A stretch of DNA of 64,000 bases from GCF_056746865.1 NZ_CM163382.1, one strand, 5' to 3'. Positions 3,171-13,424 are shown, counted from the first letter of the stretch. Translations and numbers: made by a program. Notes: a model not told the origin generated them from the sequence alone.

Positions 3171-3200
3171 CAGGCATCCTCCGGGGTGCCTGTTGTTTTT
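3171..3200 (+). terminator. Rho-independent terminator-like hairpin just upstream of J
   Basis: Stem CAGGCA.../...TGCCTG followed by TTGTTTTTT on the plus strand. Confidence 0.4.
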
Positions 3201-3244
3201 TGGGCATAAACAGATTCAGACATCAGACAGGAGAGGGGGAGCGA

Positions 3245-6200
3245 GTGGGTAAAGGTGGCGGTAAGGCGCACACACCGCGCGAGGCGAAGGATAATCTCAA
3301 ATCCACGCAGATGATGAGTGTGATTGATGCGATTGGTGAGGGACCGATAGAAGGTCCGGTGAAGGGACTGCAGAGTATCCTGGTGAACAAAACCCCGCTG
3401 ACGGACACGGACGGTAATCCCGTGATACACGGTGTGACCGCGGTCTGGCGTGCCGGGGAGCAGGAGCAGACACCACCGGAAGGCTTTGAGTCCTCCGGAG
3501 CTGAAACCGGACTGGGCGTGGAAGTGACGAAGGCAAAACCGGTGACGCGCACCATTACGTCCGCGAACATTGACCGCCTGCGGGTTACCTTCGGGGTGCA
3601 GTCACTGGTGCAGACCACGTCAAAGGGTGACCGTAACCCGACATCCGTCCGCCTGCTGATTCAGTTACAGCGTAACGGTAACTGGGTGACAGAAAAGGAC
3701 GTCACCATTAACGGCAAGACCACCTCACAGTTCCTGGCCTCGGTGATTCTGGATAATCTGCCTCCCCGGCCCTTTAACATCCGGATGGTCAGGGAGACGG
3801 CGGACAGCACCACGGACCAGCTGCAGAATAAGACGCTGTGGTCGTCATACACCGAAATCATCGATGTGAAACAGTGCTACCCGAACACGGCCATTGTGGG
3901 GCTGCAGGTGGATGCGGAGCAGTTCGGCGGCCAGCAGATGACGGTGAACTACCATATCCGCGGTCGCATCATCCAGGTGCCGTCAAACTATGACCCGGAA
4001 AAACGCACGTACAGTGGTATCTGGGACGGCAGCCTGAAACCGGCATACAGCAACAACCCGGCCTGGTGTCTGTGGGACATGCTGACTCACCCGCGCTACG
4101 GCATGGGAAAACGTCTGGGGGCGGCGGATGTGGACAAGTGGGCGCTGTATGCCATCGGGCAGTACTGCGACCAGACGGTCCCGGATGGTTTCGGGGGGAC
4201 CGAGCCGCGGATGACCTTTAATGCGTACCTGGCACAACAGCGTAAGGCGTGGGACGTTCTCAGTGATTTCTGCTCTGCGATGCGCTGTATGCCGGTATGG
4301 AACGGCCAGACGCTGACGTTCGTTCAGGACCGTCCGTCGGATGTGGTGTGGCCGTACACCAACAGCGATGTGGTGGTGGATGATAACGGCGTGGGTTTCC
4401 GCTACAGCTTCAGTGCCCTGAAGGACCGGCACACGGCAGTGGAGGTGAATTACACCGACCCGCAGAACGGCTGGCAGACCTCCACGGAACTGGTGGAAGA
4501 CCCGGAAGCCATACTGCGCTACGGACGCAACCTGCTGAAGATGGACGCGTTCGGCTGTACCAGCCGCGGTCAGGCCCACCGTGCCGGGCTGTGGGTGATA
4601 AAGACCGAACTGCTGGAAACGCAGACGGTGGATTTCACGCTCGGGTCACAGGGGCTGCGTCACACACCCGGTGACATCATTGAAATCTGTGATAACGACT
4701 ATGCCGGGACCATGACCGGCGGACGTGTCCTGTCCATCGATGCCGCCAGCCGTACCCTGACGCTGGACCGGGAGGTGACACTGCCGGAGACCGGCACGGC
4801 CACTGTTAATCTGATTAACGGCAGCGGTAAGCCGGCGAGCGTGGCCATCACCGCACACCCCGCGCCTGACCGGATACAGGTCAGCACCCTGCCGGATGGT
4901 GTGGAGACATACGGTGTGTGGGGACTCTCCCTGCCGTCACTGCGTCGTCGCCTGTTCTGCTGTGTCTCCATCCGGGAAAACACGGACGGCACGTTCGCCA
5001 TCACGGCGGTGCAGCACGTACCGGAAAAAGAAGCCATTGTGGATAACGGGGCCAGCTTTGAGCCGCAGTCAGGCAGCCTGAACAGCGTTATCCCACCGGC
5101 AGTGCAGCACCTGACGGTGGAGGTGAGTGCAGCTGACGGTCAGTATCTGGCACAGGCGAAATGGGACACGCCGCGGGTGGTGAAGGGTGTGCGCTTCAGT
5201 CTGCGTCTGACCAGCGGAAGCGGAGAAGACAGCCGTCTGGTGAGCACCGCCATCACCGCAGACACGGAGCACCGTTTCAGTGGTCTGCCGCTGGGGGAAT
5301 ACACCCTGACGGTGCGGGCCATTAACAGCTACGGCCAGCAGGGCGAACCTGCGACCACCACCTTCCGGATTAACGCGCCTGCAAAACCCGCCACCATTGA
5401 GCTGACGCCGGGGTATTTTCAGATAACGGCGGTCCCGCGTCTTGCGGTGTATGACCCGACGGTACAGTTTGAATTCTGGTTCTCAGAAAAACGCATCACG
5501 AACACGGCACAGGTGGAAAAATCTGCCCGTTATCTGGGGACCGGCAGTCAGTGGACTGTCCAGGGGAGCCGGATTAAGCCGGGGACGGATTTCTGGTTTT
5601 ACGTGCGAAGCGTCAACCTGGTGGGAAAATCTGCTTTTGTGGAAGCCAGCGGGCAGCCCAGCAATGATGGTGAAGGGTATCTGGAAATTTTCCGGGGGCT
5701 GATAGATGAGACGCTTCTGGGCCAGGCACTGAAAGAGCGCATTGATGCTTCAGCGCTGCGTACGGAGGTCACGCAACTGGAAGAAGACATCCGTCAGCGG
5801 ATGGACACGGATATCGCAGAAGTGACCCGGAAAATCGGGGAGGCGGAAAACAGCCTCACGCAGCTGGTTGCGAAAAAGAATGAGGACCAGACACTGGCCA
5901 TCGCGCAGGTGAGCCAGAAAGTGGACCGGGTGAGCAGTGAAATCTCACAGACTGTCAGCCAGGGGCAGTCAGAAAATGCCCGACAGATAGCACAGGTCCG
6001 CCAGTACGTGGATAAAAAAGGGAGTGAAATTACCTCGACCACGGATAAAAAACTGGGTGACCAGGCCGTGACCATACAGCAAATCCAGCGGGTTCAGTCA
6101 GACACGCGCAATGAGCTGAATGCCATGTATATGCTGAAGGTGCAGAAAACAAAAAACGGTATTCCCTATGTGGCCGGGATTGGTGCGGGGATTGAGGATG

Positions 6201-6937
6201 TTGATGGTCAGACGCTGAGCAGTATTCTGCTGCAGGCTGACCGTATCGCGATGATTACCCCGGAGAACGGCAACACCACGCCGCTGTTTGTGGCGCAGGG
6301 GAATCAGCTGTTCATGAACGACGTGTTCCTGAAGCGACTGTTTGCGGTGAGCATCACGTCATCCGGCAATCCTCCGACGTTTTCCCTGACGCCGGATGGC
6401 AGGCTGACAGCCCGCAATGCGGATATCAGTGGAGCCATCACGGCGAATACCGGCACGCTCAATAATGTCACCATTAACGAGAACTGTGTCATCAGAGGGA
6501 AACTGTCTGCAAACCAGATTGAAGGCGATCTCGTTAAAACAGTGGGTAAGGCTTTCCCTCGTGACTCCCGTGCACCGAAGCGGTGGCCATCAGGAACCAT
6601 TACCGTCAGGGTTTATGACGATCAGCCGTTTAACCGGCAGATTGTTATTCCGGCGGTGGCTTTCAGCGGTGCCAGACATGAGCGGGAGAACAGCGATACT
6701 TATTCGTCATGCCGCCTGATAGTGAAGAAAAACGGTGCTGAAATTTATAACCGTACCGCGCTGGATAATACGCTGATTTACAGTGGTGTTATTGATATGC
6801 CAGCTGGTCGCGGCCACATGACGCTGGAGTTTTCTGTATCAGCATGGTGGGTAAATGGCTGGTATCCCACAGCAAGTATCAGCGATTTGCTGGTTGTTGT
6901 GATGAAGAAAGCCACTGCAGGCATCACGATTAGCTGA
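3245..6937 (+). CDS. Host specificity / central tail fiber protein J
   Basis: About 1230 aa, collinear with lambda gpJ ([21 protein letters not shown]...). Start is probably GTG at 3245 after a GGAG-rich SD; the TTG at 3200 in the ORF track is unlikely. Confidence 0.9.
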
Positions 6938-6980: not shown

Positions 6981-7004
6981 ATTGCAGAAAAGCGAGAGGT
7001 AATT

Positions 7005-7604
7005 ATGCGTAAAGTTTGTGCAGCCATTTTGTCCGCAGCCATCTGTCTGTCCGTATCCGGTGCGCCTGCATGGGCGTCTGAACATCAGTCCACACTGAGC
7101 GCAGGGTATCTTCATGCCCGTACGAACGCTCCCGGCAGCGATAATCTGAACGGGATTAACGTGAAATACCGTTATGAGTTTACGGACGCGCTGGGGCTGA
7201 TTACGTCCTTCAGTTATGCCAATGCTGAGGATGAGCAAAAAACGCACTACAGCGATACCCGCTGGCATGAAGATTCCGTGCGTAACCGCTGGTTCAGCGT
7301 GATGGCGGGGCCGTCTGTACGCGTGAATGAATGGTTCAGCGCGTATGCGATGGCGGGTGTGGCTTACAGCCGTGTGTCGACTTTCTCCGGGGATTATCTC
7401 CGCGTAACTGACAACAAGGGGAAAAAGCACGATGTGCTGACCGGAAGTGATGACGGTCGCCACAGCAACACGTCTCTGGCGTGGGGAGCTGGCGTGCAGT
7501 TTAACCCGACCGAATCCGTGGCCATTGATGTCGCTTATGAAGGCTCCGGCAGCGGTGACTGGCGTACCAACAGTTTCATCGTTGGTGTCGGTTATAAGTT
7601 CTGA
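7005..7604 (+). CDS. lom: Lom-family outer membrane protein (Ail/Lom/PagC beta-barrel)
   Basis: 199 aa with signal peptide and the C-terminal ...AYEGSGSGDWRTNSFIVGVGYKF of lambda Lom. Lies between J and stf as in lambda. Confidence 0.85.
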   Translation: MRKVCAAILSAAICLSVSGAPAWASEHQSTLSAGYLHARTNAPGSDNLNGINVKYRYEFTDALGLITSFSYANAEDEQKTHYSDTRWHEDSVRNRWFSVMAGPSVRVNEWFSAYAMAGVAYSRVSTFSGDYLRVTDNKGKKHDVLTGSDDGRHSNTSLAWGAGVQFNPTESVAIDVAYEGSGSGDWRTNSFIVGVGYKF

Positions 7605-7630
7605 TTAGCCAGGTAACACAGTGTTATGAC

Positions 7631-7658
7631 AGCCCGCCGGTTCAGGCGGGCTTTTTTG
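7631..7658 (+). terminator. Rho-independent terminator after lom
   Basis: AGCCCGCC-GGTTCAG-GGCGGGCT followed by TTTTTT. Confidence 0.6.
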
Positions 7659-7668
7659 TGGAGTGGAT

Positions 7669-10600
7669 ATGGCAGCAGTAAAAATCTCAGGTGTGCTGAA
7701 AGATGGCACAGGAAAACCAGTACAGAACTGCACCATTGTGCTGAAGGCCAGACGAACCAGCAGCACGGTGGTGGTGAACACGGTGGCCTCTGAAAATCCG
7801 GATGAAGCCGGACGTTACAGCATGGATGTTGAGCATGGCCAGTACAGCGTCACCCTGCTGGTTGAAGGTTTTCCGCCTTCACATGCCGGGACCATTACCG
7901 TCTATGAAGGTTCCAGACCAGGTACGCTGAATGATTTTCTCGGTGCCATGACGGAGGATGATGTCCGACCGGAGGCACTGCGCCGCTTTGAGCAGATGGT
8001 GGAAGAGGTGTCACGTAACGCCTCCGCGGTTGCACAGAATACGGCAGCCGCGAAAAAATCAGCCAGCGATACCAGTGCATCAGCCAGCGAGGCGGCAACT
8101 CATGCAACCGATGCTGCAGCCTCAGCACGTGCCGCCAGCACGTCAGCCGGACAGGCCGCGTCGTCGGCTCAGTCAGCGTCTTCCAGCGCAGGAACGGCAT
8201 CGACAAAGGCCCGTGAAGCAGCAAAAAGTGCTGCTGCTGCAGAGTCATCAAAAAGCGCGGCAGCTACCAGCGCCAGTGCCGCGAAAACGTCAGAAACGAA
8301 TGCCGCAGCATCACAAAAATCGGCAGCCACTTCTGCATCCACAGCGACCACGAAGGCGTCAGAAGCTGCCACCTCGGCACGGGGTGCGGCGGCCTCAAAA
8401 GAGGCAGCGAAATCTTCAGAAACGAATGCATCATCAAGTGCCAGTAGTGCAGCTTCCTCGGCAACGGCGGCAGGAAATTCCGCGAAGGCGGCAAAAACGT
8501 CCGAGACGAACGCTAAGTCTTCTGAAACAGCAGCGGGACAGAGCGCCTCAGCTGCGGCAGGTTCAAAAACAGCGGCTGTATTATCTGCCAGTGCCGCGTC
8601 AACAAGTGCCGGGCAGGCCTCAGCCAGTGCCACCGCCGCCGGAAAATCGGCAGAAAGCGCCGCATCATCCGCTTCAACAGCCACAACGAAGGCTGGCAAA
8701 GCCACTGAGCAAGCCACTGCAGCAGCGAGGTCTGCTTCTGCAGCAAAAACCTCTGAAACAAATGCAAAGACTTCAGCAGACAATGCTGCTTCCTCTAAGG
8801 CGGCAGCCGCATCGTCAGCCAGTTCAGCGGCGTCATCGGCATCATCTGCGTCTGCTTCAAAAGATGAGGCGACCAGACAAGCGTCAGCAGCGAAAGGTAG
8901 TGCCACGACAGCAACAACGAAAGCATCAGAGGCGGCAGGCAGTGCGACGGCTGCATCTCAGAGCAAAGTTGCTGCTGAATCCGCGGCAACGCGCGCCGAG
9001 ACAGCAGCAAAACGGGCAGAGGATATTGCATCCGCCGTGGCGCTGGAGGATGCGAGCACGACGAAAAAGGGGATAGTACAGCTCAGCAGTGCAACAAACA
9101 GCACCAGTGAAAAGCTGGCGGCAACGCCAAAGGCAGTTAAAACTGTTAAAGATAGTTCAGTTCAAAAAACTGGCGACACAATGGGAGGGCAGTTAAAAAT
9201 CAGCACGATAAATGCTCTTCGAATATTCAACCAAGCCTTTGGCCTTATTTTTAGGCGTTCCGAAGATCATCTTCATCTTATTCCGACTAATGAAGGGGAG
9301 GGGGAAAATGGAGACATCGGTTCATTAAGACCATTCTCTATAAACTTAAGATCAGGGTTGGTGTCCATCGGTAATGGACTAAAAGTTGGTGGTAGTGTTA
9401 CTGGTAATTTGACCGGAAACGCAGATACTGCGACCAAGATCAAGACAGCACGTAAGATTGGGGGCGTGGCATTTGATGGATCGGCAGATATCAACTTGCC
9501 TGGAGTCAACGCTACCGGTAATCAAAACACTACAGGTAATGCTGCGACCGCCACGAAACTTCAGGCAGCCAGAACGATTAACGGTGTGTCATTTGATGGT
9601 AGTGCAAATATCACATTGACCCCTTCAAATATTGGGGCATTGGCATTAACTGGAGGGACTCTTTCAGGTGGTTTAACTGCTGCTGGTGAGGTTATTTCAA
9701 GGTCAGCAAATGGTCTGCGTATTGCCTATGGCAACTATGGATTCTTTATCCGAAATGATGGATCAAACACATATTTTATGTTGACAGATTCGGGTAACAG
9801 TCTTGGTACGCACAATAGCTTAAGGCCGTTTATAATTAGTAACCATACTGGCAATGTTACAATTGCAACTAAATTAAACGCGAGTGGTGGTATCACTGGA
9901 TCTTTATCGGGTAATGCAAGCACAGCAACCAAATTGCAAACTGCAAGGACAATTAACGGCGTAAAATTTGACGGCTCGGCAAATATTGAAGCGTTTCCGC
10001 CAGGTGTTCCGCTGCCGTGGCCATCAGATACACCACCTGCAGGTTATGCAATCATGCAGGGGCAGACGTTTGATAAGGCAGCATATCCGAAACTGGCTAT
10101 TGCCTATCCTTCAGGTGTTATTCCAGATATGCGCGGCTGGACAATCAAGGGCAAACCCGCCAGTGGCCGGGCCGTATTGTCTCAGGAACAGGACGGCATT
10201 AAATCGCACACCCACAGCGCCAGCGCATCCAGTACGGATTTGGGGACGAAAACCACATCGTCGTTTGATTACGGCACTAAATCCACGAATAACACCGGGG
10301 CGCATACGCACAGTCTGAGTGGCTCTACGGGGTCTGCCGGTGTTCATACTCATGGTAATGGTATTCGTTGGCCAGGAGGCGGCGGTTCTGCGTTAGCATT
10401 TTATGATGGCGGTGGGTTCACTTATGTCCAGAATTCACAGTATCAAGTAAGCCCGGAGACTTCTTCCTATAGATCGTATTATCAACGTATTCAGACACAG
10501 TCAGCAGGTGCTCATACCCACTCGCTGTCTGGTACTGCAGCAAGTTCTGGCGCACATGCACATACTGTAGGTATTGGTGCGCATACGCACTCCGTTGCGA

Positions 10601-10698
10601 TTGGTTCACATGGACACACCATCACCGTTAACGCTGCGGGTAACGCGGAAAACACCGTCAAAAACATCGCATTTAACTATATTGTGAGGCTTGCATAA
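7669..10698 (+). CDS. stf: Side tail fiber protein Stf
   Basis: N-terminus [21 protein letters not shown]... like lambda Stf, long Ala/Ser-rich TSETNA repeat region, C-terminal GAHTHS repeats. ATG at 7669 has a GGAG SD 5 nt upstream (the track's GTG at 7663 is less likely). Confidence 0.85.
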
Positions 10699-11282
10699 TG
10701 GCATTCAGAATGAGTGAACAACCACGGACCATAAAAATTTATAATCTGTTGTCCGGAACTAATGAATTTATTGGTGAAGGTGATGCATATATTCCGCCTC
10801 ATACAGGTCTGCCAGCAAACAGTACCGATATTGCACCGCCAGATATTCCGGCTGGCTTCGTGGCTGTTTTCAATAGTGATGAGTCATCGTGGCATCTCGT
10901 TGAAGACCATCGGGGTAAAACGGTTTATGACGTAGCGTCAGGGGACGAGTTATTTATTTCTGAACTCGGTCCGTTACCGGAAAATGTTACCTGGTTATCG
11001 CCGGAAGGGGAGTTTCAGAAGTGGAACGGCACAGCCTGGGTGAAGGATACGGAAGCAGAAAAACTGTTCCGGATCCGGGAGGCGGAAGAAACAAAAAACA
11101 ACCTGATGCAGGTAGCCAGTGAGCATATTGCGCCGCTTCAGGATGCTGCAGATCTGGAAATTGCAACGGAGGAAGAAACCTCATTGCTGGAAGCCTGGAA
11201 AAAGTATCGGGTGTTGCTGAACCGTGTTGATACATCAACTGCACCTGATATTGAGTGGCCTACGAACCCTGTCAGGGAGTAA
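10698..11282 (+). CDS. tfa: Tail fiber assembly protein Tfa
   Basis: 194 aa, start overlaps the stf stop (TAATG), Tfa-like sequence. Confidence 0.8.
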
Positions 11283-11336
11283 TCATTGGGATTATGCCGC
11301 AGCACGTCTTAAGCAAGAACGTGCTGCGGTTGGATG

Positions 11337-12005
11337 CTATTTTTTCCCTGAAGCGGAAAACATTACTACAGTACCTTGAACCTTGGTTTTAACATTCTCG
11401 AAATGCTCTGAGAGTATATGTGTTAAGCCTTCTTCGGAATCTTTTGTGTTTGAAAAGATGCCTTTCTGATTGTAAATGCGCATCAGTTTTTGACCGAAGC
11501 TATTGTGCACAACTCCATCGCCAAGAATTGTGGCTCCGTATAGAGTTCCATCGTCAGTTAAGGCCTGCGCCGCATTGCGTATTACACAGCTTTTTGTAGA
11601 TATATTTCCAGGCAGGCAGTGAAGAAGGTAAAACATGGAAATGGAATCAAATTGACCATGTAACGCCGCGGGATAAGGTTCAAAAACATCATGGCTAATT
11701 TTATGTTTAATTTTTGATTCCCCAGCCCTTGTAGATGCCGCGTTCAGGCTAGCTTCGTTCAAATCCATTAAAGATATCAGACTACTCTCAGGTACGTGAG
11801 TAAGGTAAAACCCAGTTCCAACACCAATATCCAGATGGTTGTTACCTAAATGTTCCAGAAAGTGTGGAAGAAGGTGTTCCTTTGTAGGACATCCCCATGC
11901 AAGCCGATTTGATACTCCCAAAACCCACCAGTCATAAAGCTTTAGGGTAAGTGGTGTGTAAATTTTAGCCCCATCATCTGTGTTTTTTTTCATTGATTTC
12001 ACCAT
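11337..12005 (-). CDS. Class I SAM-dependent methyltransferase (prophage cargo gene, substrate unknown)
   Basis: Rossmann motif I LDIGVGTGF, about 220 aa, AT-richer than neighbours, opposite strand between tfa and a tfa fragment. More likely start is ATG at 11993 (GGTGA SD). Confidence 0.6.
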   Translation of the reverse strand: MVKSMKKNTDDGAKIYTPLTLKLYDWWVLGVSNRLAWGCPTKEHLLPHFLEHLGNNHLDIGVGTGFYLTHVPESSLISLMDLNEASLNAASTRAGESKIKHKISHDVFEPYPAALHGQFDSISMFYLLHCLPGNISTKSCVIRNAAQALTDDGTLYGATILGDGVVHNSFGQKLMRIYNQKGIFSNTKDSEEGLTHILSEHFENVKTKVQGTVVMFSASGKK

Positions 12006-12024
12006 GTTATAGTTTTATTTGTAA

Positions 12025-12053
12025 ATTAAATCAATTATGGCGATGAATTACAA
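12025..12053 (-). promoter_or_regulatory. Predicted sigma70 promoter of the methyltransferase gene
   Basis: Minus-strand TTGTAA-17 bp-TTTAAT just upstream of the ATG. Confidence 0.3.
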
Positions 12054-12061
12054 GGGGTTAA

Positions 12062-12328
12062 ATGCTGCCGCAGCATAGCGATATTGAAATAGCCTGGTAT
12101 GCTTCGATACAGCAGGAGCCGAATGGCTGGAAGACCGTCACCACACAGTTCTACATCCAGGAATTCAGTGAGTATATTGCGCCACTGCAGGATGCTGTAG
12201 ATCTGGAAATCGCAACGGAGGAAGAAAGATCGTTGCTGGAGGCATGGAATAAATATCGGGTGTTGTTGAATCGTGTTGATACATCAACTGCACCTGATAT
12301 TGAGTGGCCGACTTCACCTGCAGAGTAA
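12062..12328 (+). pseudogene. Tail fiber assembly protein fragment (duplicated tfa 3' end with unrelated N-terminus)
   Basis: 88 aa. The C-terminal ~50 aa ([18 protein letters not shown]...DIEWPT) nearly repeats the C-terminus of the full tfa at 10698-11282. Confidence 0.55.
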
Positions 12329-12560
12329 TCAACGGCGCAGGGATGATATTTTGTGCTTGAAGTGCCTCCCCGACCATTCAGATAGTCGGGGAGGGGGGAT
12401 TGGGATTATACGCAATCAGTTTTAGTTAAAGACCGAAGTTCTCGAAAAATCTTTCTCCAAAACCAGAATGCAATTGATTGATTTTGATAGGATCTATAAT
12501 GCCGTTACCTTAAACGGCAAAACCACTCAAAAACAAACCTAATGCATTGAATATAAAGGA
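12329..12560. other. Prophage-chromosome junction region (candidate att site) with a 10-bp-stem hairpin at 12365-12394
   Basis: Non-coding segment between the tfa fragment and the potB stop. The ATG immediately after the potB stop is followed by only a 9-codon ORF, not a potC-length reading frame. Confidence 0.4.
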
Positions 12561-13424
12561 TTAATCATCTAATTCGCTCACCTTCTTATTCAGCAAACGA
12601 GAAGCGCGCCAGTAAACCAGCAACATCAGGCCCATTACGATAGTCAGCGTAATGCTGGTGGCTGCACCAAACGGCCAGTCACGAATATTGAGGAACTGTA
12701 CTTTGATGACGTTACCGATCAGCAGGTTTTTCGCACCGCCCATCAGGTCGGACACATAGAACAGGCCCATCGCTGGCAGCATCACCAACAGGCATCCGGC
12801 AATAATCCCCGGCATCGTCAGTGGGATAATGATACGGATAAAGGTCTGCAACTTGCTGGCACCGAGATCGCGCGCCGCCTCCAGCAACGGCTTATCCAGT
12901 TTTTCGATACTCGAGTACAGCGGCATCACCATAAACGGCAGCAGAATGTAAACCAGACCGATAATCACCGCACTGGGTGTGAACATGATGCGAATTGGTG
13001 TATCGATAACGCCCAGCCAGAGCAAAAACTCGTTGAGATAGCCTTTGGTGCTGAGGAAAATTTTCAGCCCGTAGATACGAATCAATGAGTTGGTCCAGAA
13101 CGGAACAATCAGCAGAAACAGCAGCAGCGGACGCACCTTGTGTGGCAGCTTCGCCAGAAACCAGGCAAAAGGATAGCCCAGCACCAGGCAGGCGAGGGTG
13201 GCGATCAGCGCCATATTCAGCGAGTGCAATAGCACTTCAAAATAGAGCGGATCGAGCAGACGCGTGTAGTTATCCAGCGTAAAGACCATTTTGACGAAAC
13301 TGGCGTCGTCGCGGGTCAAAAAGCTGGTGCCAATGATCATCAGGTTGGGCAGAAAGACAAACAACACAAGCCAACCGACAATAGTGACAATCACTACATT
13401 CTGGAACTTACTTGTGTTCTTCAT
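12561..13424 (-). CDS. potB: Spermidine/putrescine ABC transporter permease PotB
   Basis: Protein matches PotB and overlaps the potA 3' end. An internal start near 13388 would give the shorter annotated form. Confidence 0.9.

Follow-up and report, generated by a model that had tools for sequence, protein, structure and literature searches.

A mosaic, probably distal-shaft segment with three copies of a widespread 40-residue repeat in a lambda-type side tail fibre gene

The motifs of phage tail fibres were reportedly reviewed by Sandmeier in 1994. The described systems closest to the gene analysed here are the side tail fibre genes of lambda (Stf), Rac (StfR), O157 and the Qin-type prophages, which lie at the same genome position (J, lom, stf, tfa) and whose products share the phage_tail_N domain, the Ala/Ser repeats, the Phage_fiber_2 motif, a gp37-like tip and Tfa with it; the flanks, i.e. 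the N-terminal part and the gp37-like tip, are common to these alleles at ~88% DNA identity. Experiments have shown that lambda stf and Rac stfR, which are 88% identical, recombine homologously with each other (PMC3945230). According to the literature cited by De Paepe et al., reports of mosaic tail fibres with common motifs go back to the early 1990s, and mobile fibre domains have been catalogued by RBPseg. Tail-fibre mosaicism is already known, and the allele described here is a real and well-delimited, but ordinary, case of it; modestly new is only one point, that a very common 40-residue repeat found in its shaft has no curated family model or solved structure.

The window, by which we mean the whole stretch of DNA that was analysed (64,000 nt of NZ_CM163382.1, GCF_056746865.1), begins with the right arm, ~12.4 kb, of a lambdoid prophage that is inserted beside potB. 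The gene order J, lom, stf, tfa is that of the lambdoid tail gene cluster, as seen from the ORFs and from the RefSeq annotation of an identical locus (Table 1). On the 3' side of tfa lie a minus-strand SAM-dependent methyltransferase gene, a truncated tfa and potB. The stf gene is 100% identical to a prophage gene of Escherichia coli CFSAN061770 (WP_074403624.1) located between lom and tfa and adjoining potB, for which the RefSeq name is 'prophage tail fiber N-terminal domain-containing protein', and hundreds of genomes already contain this allele in annotated form. Its PF08400 N-terminus, the J-lom-stf-tfa order and its T4 gp37-like tip identify the product as a lambda-type side tail fibre. 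Fibres of this type form trimers on the virion and, through an outer-membrane receptor, speed up adsorption. We number amino acids from the GTG at 7663; RefSeq uses the ATG at 7669. Neither Stf nor the segment of interest has a match in NCBIfam. In the Ala/Ser-rich region a DNA repeat finder detects a 33-nt unit six times between 8047 and 8772.

Table 1. Tail genes of the prophage arm and anatomy of Stf (positions counted from the first nucleotide of the window)
Feature	Position	Strand	Evidence or remark
J	3200-6937		ORF list
lom	7005-7604		ORF list
stf, side tail fibre gene	7663/7669-10698	+	ORF list; 1009-1011 aa
phage_tail_N attachment domain, aa 5-136	7675-8070	+	PF08400, E = 3.6e-69, 231 bits vs cut-off 26.6
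Ala/Ser-rich 'TSETNA' repeat region	8071-9048	+	GC2 = 0.80
Phage_fiber_2 motif	9055-9165	+	PF03406, E = 1.8e-17; one copy; left junction 9141/9142 inside
Low-GC shaft cassette, probably exchangeable, aa 494-776	9142-9990	+	GC 0.428; most Stf alleles unmatched by megablast
Knob A, aa ~503-580	9169-9402	+	Diverged gp34-type knob; Pfam Gp34_trimer, two matched stretches
Fibre repeat copy 1, full 40-aa unit including linker	9412-9531	+	Unit HMM i-E 5.7e-24
Fibre repeat copy 2, core only, exactly 40 aa past copy 1	9532-9621	+	Unit HMM i-E 1.2e-16
Knob B, predicted beta-prism knob, aa ~655-745	9625-9897	+	PDB 5YVQ, 4UXE, PF21446, Foldseek
Fibre repeat copy 3, isolated core without linker, abutting the tip	9907-9990	+	Unit HMM i-E 8.5e-17
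Putative receptor-binding tip, T4 gp37 collar/needle/head homologue, GAHTHS repeats	9991-10695	+	PDB 2XGF, E = 2e-80
tfa, tail fibre assembly chaperone	10698-11282	+	PF02413 Caudo_TAP, E = 1.9e-44

Domain shuffling had been proposed for the part of stf at 9400-9980, and our alignments agree with it: the Stf homologues share their flanks and differ in the middle cassette. Between AATPKAVK and PxPWPSD the present protein has 290 aa with three repeats and two gp34-type knobs, and the other alleles are unrelated there. Rac StfR, TW10722, lambda, the O157 allele and the Qin-type allele carry four other middle cassettes between the common flanks, which makes at least five different cassettes counting the present one: 419 aa with one copy of the repeat motif in StfR, and ~90 aa (lambda), 185 aa (O157) and 266 aa (Qin-type) with none. 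Uniform presence of the segment in all Stf homologues would speak against shuffling; it is missing from several alleles.

The junctions are sharp. On the left, identity to Rac stfR stops abruptly in the pairwise alignment, exactly at 9141, the end of AATPKAVK; on the right, homology returns at 9991 (lambda), 10015 (StfR) or 9905 (P2-like H). Matches to stf are found at ~17,000 places in 5,177 out of 5,426 E. coli genomes, and also in the phage collection, and most of them span ~7675-9141 plus 9991/10015-10698 at ~88% identity, skipping the middle. The cassette itself is almost entire, with at least 80% of the query covered, in 422 out of the 5,426 complete E. coli genomes (7.8%). It occurs at 99% identity or more in ~430 records, with almost none between 95% and 99%.

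Where the cassette occurs in complete E. coli genomes, the N-terminal part and the tip beside it are nearly always the same (424 vs 426 records). The comparison with strain 203740 shows a block pattern: 9005-10704 has zero mismatches, and the N-terminal part has up to 17 differing positions per 100 nt. Metagenome-derived proteins, in turn, carry the cassette at 93-97% amino acid identity fused to other C-termini, the change occurring after repeat 3 or within knob B; these C-termini are of an S74-chaperone type (P0050), a Mu-S-like type (P0111) and a third type (P0054). The case for independent mobility of the cassette comes mainly from these metagenomic proteins and from the alternative cassettes.

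The tail fibre H of P2-type phages (a tail-collar fibre), which belongs to a myovirus baseplate fibre locus, provides a different kind of comparison. The P2-type H locus is 83% identical to the tail of stf plus tfa, and the P2-like H gene of strain EC571 has 94.4% DNA identity over 9905-10312 (repeat 3 and the first ~320 nt of the tip), being near-identical from ~9946 through at least 10084. It shares nothing of knobs A and B, and upstream of repeat 3 it differs from stf save for 79 nt at the Phage_fiber_2 motif that match at 86%. Since the P2-type gene shares repeat 3 and the start of the tip but not the knobs, repeat 3 is an overlap common to two modules, and this overlap would match the appearance of a recombination joint. 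By the same token copy 3 appears to differ in DNA ancestry from copies 1 and 2, and to move with the tip block.

It is probable that 9142-9990 is a self-contained, exchangeable distal-shaft module of a lambda-type side tail fibre, brought in by recombination at shared linkers. The module would have arrived via homologous recombination at short conserved linkers that are common to many otherwise unrelated fibre genes: the candidate left linker is the Phage_fiber_2 motif, and on the right either repeat 3 or the beginning of the collar domain would have this role. Recombination at such linkers would explain why the same N-terminal part and tip occur with other cassettes, and the same cassette with other tips. 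If so, the locus could be a template for chimeric fibre engineering, with the N-terminus, the shaft cassette and the tip separable at 9141/9142 and 9905-10015.

The assignment of the cassette to the shaft comes from its knobs. The cassette is laid out as knob A, repeat 1, repeat 2, knob B and repeat 3. Knob B shares significant similarities with Mu S (PDB 5YVQ, E = 5.7e-25) and with T4 gp34 (4UXE, E = 5.6e-18; 4UXE/5NXF, ~1e-17), and it matches the Gp34_trimer family (PF21446), whose profile gives two matched stretches in Stf, at 94.1-100.9 bits against a cut-off of 27. A Foldseek search with the AlphaFold model of knob B returned Mu S (5YVQ, E = 3.5e-6) and gp34 (5NXH and 4UXE, ~1e-5 to 2e-5); the identity is 45-48% over ~113-121 aligned columns, and the predicted antiparallel beta-sheet core is the same. 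The model in question, an AlphaFold monomer of repeat-knob B-repeat, has low confidence overall (pLDDT 59.6), and its knob core reaches 74-86. On the gp34 side the alignment spans ~residues 1040-1117 and takes in domain P4, a beta-prism between triple-beta-helix segments that interrupts the rod and stacks on these segments (PMC5537660). The resemblance has limits: in T4 gp34 and Mu S, unlike in Stf, the 40-residue repeat does not come after the knob, and gp34 belongs to the proximal half-fibre of a myovirus whereas Stf is the side fibre of a siphovirus. By analogy with P4, the repeat units probably form thin rod segments in the trimeric fibre with the knobs stacked on them, and knobs and repeats together would determine how long and how stiff the fibre is from the Ala/Ser-rich proximal rod to the gp37-like tip.

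The original prediction had placed the segment in the receptor-binding part of the fibre. This placement does not hold: the homology to gp34 shaft domains puts the segment in the distal shaft, and a gp37-like tip and Tfa follow downstream. The C-terminal 235 aa (aa ~777-1011) align end to end with the receptor-binding tip of T4 gp37 (2XGF), with Pfam matches to Collar (aa 781-828) and Phage_fiber, and judging from this homology the receptor-binding part of Stf would be this C-terminal tip.

A role of the segment in receptor recognition, with knobs or repeats binding a secondary receptor (e.g. a surface glycan) and cassette exchange altering the host range, is nevertheless worth weighing, though we regard it as unlikely. 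Such a role would make sense of the many different middle cassettes behind one conserved tip, which may be a sign of diversifying selection; carbohydrate binding by the motif-bearing beta-helix is put forward, as speculation, in the phage L Dec paper, and RBPseg reports mobile knob domains common to several fibre classes. However, the structural homologue of knob B sits in gp34, which in the account given in PMC5537660 is the phage-proximal half-fibre, away from the receptor-binding end; a complete gp37-type tip and the Tfa chaperone directly follow the segment; and we found no binding-site features in the segment.

The same segment had been called AT-richer, which is correct, but its left edge had been set too far to the right: the low-GC block starts at ~9142, ~260 nt to the left of 9400. 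GC is 0.442 for 9400-9980, 0.520 for the whole of stf and 0.491 for the window. Along the gene, GC falls from ~0.59 to ~0.42 near 9100 and is back to ~0.55 beyond 10000, and 9400-9600 is the least AT-rich part of the low-GC block. Low GC alone is weak evidence, and it is the comparative data that carry the conclusion of shuffling; the region upstream is rich in Ala/Ser codons (see GC2 in Table 1), which accounts for some of the contrast. It could even be held that the low GC is entirely a by-product of amino acid composition, a Gly/Asn/Thr/Ile-rich shaft lying beside an Ala/Ser-rich rod, and is silent on foreign origin. We consider this quite improbable. It is true that the high upstream GC2 comes from Ala/Ser/Thr codons while upstream GC3 is only 0.436, that the 3' end of stf likewise has a low GC3 (0.33-0.38), and that the dip ranks only at the 16th-20th percentile of the 64 kb (the lowest 3-8% of the prophage part). 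But GC3 is largely independent of protein make-up, and yet it is 0.336 for 9142-9990 vs 0.467 in the remainder of stf (Fisher p = 1.7e-4), far under the values of gene J (0.69) and lom (0.61); the fall in GC also roughly coincides with the left homology junction near 9142.

As for the route of exchange, fibre genes of several phages and prophages are switched by a DNA invertase (the Mu G segment, the P1/P7 C segment, e14 and the pin genes of Rac and Qin), and these systems are defined by 26-bp crossover sites on either side of an invertible set of 3' exons and by a serine invertase beside tfa. Shuffling of stf at such sites by a Gin/Cin/Pin-type enzyme, of the kind known from Mu, P1, e14 and Rac, would be in keeping with the presence of the repeat in the invertible C-segment of P7 (Sv') and with pinR or pinQ just past tfa in the Rac and Qin-type loci; it is very improbable here, as the crossover core AAACCNNGGTTT is unmatched in or near stf, one-mismatch matches to the core number two in the window against 2.4 expected by chance (none of them in stf), and the locus has a methyltransferase gene and a truncated tfa downstream and no invertase gene or inverted alternative exon. 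A search for inverted repeats in 7000-12600 found only one, inside lom.

The three copies of a ~20-aa motif on which the original prediction was built are there: a regular expression finds exactly three in the Stf protein, and an HMM finds three in stf and none elsewhere in the 64 kb. The regular expression matches aa 585-610 (nt 9415-9492), 625-650 (nt 9535-9612) and 750-775 (nt 9910-9987) of Stf, and the third copy ends at 9990, 10 nt past the end originally given. When all six frames of the window were searched with the HMM of the repeat unit, the best match beyond these three copies had an E-value of at least 4. The copies are 65-74% identical to each other in protein and 60-63% in DNA. 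The repetition extends to a larger unit, a knob (~75 aa) plus the motif, that is present twice: the alignment of aa ~503-610 with aa ~669-775 scores 194, and shuffled sequences score 36 +/- 6. Because the DNA identity is just 60-63% and the DNA repeat finder does not pick the copies up, the three copies appear to be old, diverged members of a repeat family and not the result of a recent local duplication. A recent duplication in place, by replication slippage or unequal crossing-over, is suggested by the exact tandem arrangement of copies 1 and 2 (40 aa apart), but it is extremely improbable given this divergence, the occurrence of this tandem pair together with its linker in thousands of unrelated fibres, and the ~94% DNA identity of copy 3 to the P2-like fibre gene, independent of copies 1 and 2.

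The fibre repeat to which the motif belongs is 40 residues long; the motif is its core and has the consensus GNAxTATKLxTARTIxGVxFDGSxNI, in which A, R, G, V, F and G are invariant positions. The 40-aa tandem period and the linker LPGVNxxGNQxT hold for copies 1 and 2, and copy 3 is an isolated core. Pfam-A and NCBIfam contain no model for this repeat, and a protein with ~10 or more tandem copies has zero Pfam matches. In searches of PDB sequences (with a single sequence and with a profile) the repeat was found only in the C-terminus of phage L Dec and in PhiM1 gp47: the Dec monomer (6E3C) has it disordered, and a low-resolution homology model built on gp34 shows it as a trimeric beta-helix, while in PhiM1 gp47 (8VBX) it sits in a fibre described only as long helical bundles. 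The AlphaFold monomer of a double repeat folds RxIxGVxF into a beta-hairpin and contains no helix (pLDDT 77), and it disagrees on the N-terminal half of the repeat with the repeat-knob B-repeat model, which has a low-confidence helix over ATKLQxAR (pLDDT ~50). Foldseek returned zero matches for the double-repeat model. In the trimer the repeat may fold as a triple beta-helix or as a mixed alpha/beta layer. Position beside a gp34-like knob and the trimeric beta-helix model of the Dec C-terminus together suggest that the repeat is probably rod-forming. A family model and a trimer structure of the 40-residue repeat would allow better annotation of thousands of fibre genes, and the significance of the present locus is mostly limited to annotation.

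A search with the double repeat in 1.84 billion representative proteins yielded 6,697 clusters at E <= 1e-3, 455 of them at E <= 1e-30. Other repeat-bearing phage fibres have the same core consensus, the same 40-aa period and the same linker as Stf, but they differ in copy number: from one copy to at least 12 copies were counted per protein, with up to 19 matched stretches in some proteins, whereas Stf has two tandem units and an isolated one. Among the best 150 of the 6,697 clusters the cores lie most often 40 aa apart (258 cases) and next most often 37 aa apart (61 cases). In the homologues, pairs of repeats flank many different globular inserts. The repeat may, tentatively, act as a universal 'socket' that brackets swappable knob or tip modules, its DNA microhomology enabling swaps between unrelated phage lineages; if this were true, the nucleotide conservation of ~70% might reflect selection for the ability to recombine besides selection for structure. 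The DNA of the repeat is 69-73% identical to cyanophage (Prochlorococcus) and roseophage (Roseobacter) genes. Isolated phages with the repeat include P7 (Sv'), SSU5, T6 and RB7 (gp37) and the Prochlorococcus phages P-TIM68 and P-HM2, and it is also found in Shewanella, Acinetobacter and Pseudomonas PAK_P5-like phages.

The side tail fibre gene of a lambda-type siphovirus and the fibre gene of a P2-type myovirus have in common repeat 3 (the third copy in stf of a 40-residue fibre repeat) and ~320 nt at the start of the tip, the T4 gp37-like receptor-binding C-terminal part of Stf. Positions 9905-10312 of the window share 94% DNA identity with positions 3001-3408 of L005, in the fibre gene of a P2-like prophage in E. 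coli EC571, and the identity is near 100% from ~9946 to 10084 or beyond, 10084 being where the inspected stretch ended. Because of this similarity, the sequences point to a recent exchange between lambda-type and P2-type prophages.

Putative recombination breakpoints are also found inside the Ala/Ser-rich region of stf (8047-8772; built from a 33-nt unit that is present in six diverged copies, the KTSETNA repeats), as 100-nt blocks in this region alternate between identical and divergent when compared with strain 203740: there is one mismatch in 8505-8904 (nearly identical), but 15 in 8905-9004.

The 40-residue fibre repeat is present in 6,697 protein clusters, and its carriers include cyanophage fibres and marine metagenome proteins (TARA and GOS). 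No Pfam-A or NCBIfam model was found for this repeat (window 9412-9621 and 9907-9990; the repeat-bearing proteins P0001 and P0002, and others); even proteins with at least 10 tandem copies still have no model in these two collections.

There are two copies of the tfa 3' end (11106-11263 and 12155-12312; 158 nt, 88% identity), and a second pair goes with them (11271-11295 and 12385-12409). The methyltransferase gene (GC 0.41, GC3 0.36) and the flanking tfa copies look like a cargo ('moron') cassette, captured via tfa-tfa recombination at the prophage end adjoining potB. Strains CFSAN061770 and TW10722 have the same tfa/methyltransferase/truncated tfa arrangement in their annotation.

Genes at the prophage end adjoining potB
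Feature	Window position	Strand	Remark
Class I SAM-dependent methyltransferase gene	11337-12005	minus	between the two tfa 3'-end copies
Truncated tfa	12062-12328		second tfa copy; 88 aa

Fibre loci of defective prophages often show decay. An IS5-like element interrupts lom, upstream of stfR, in the Rac prophage of the K-12 derivative E. coli S17-1 (L001, 195-1175). An IS66 element truncates tfa in the O157 strain N8B7-2 (L007).
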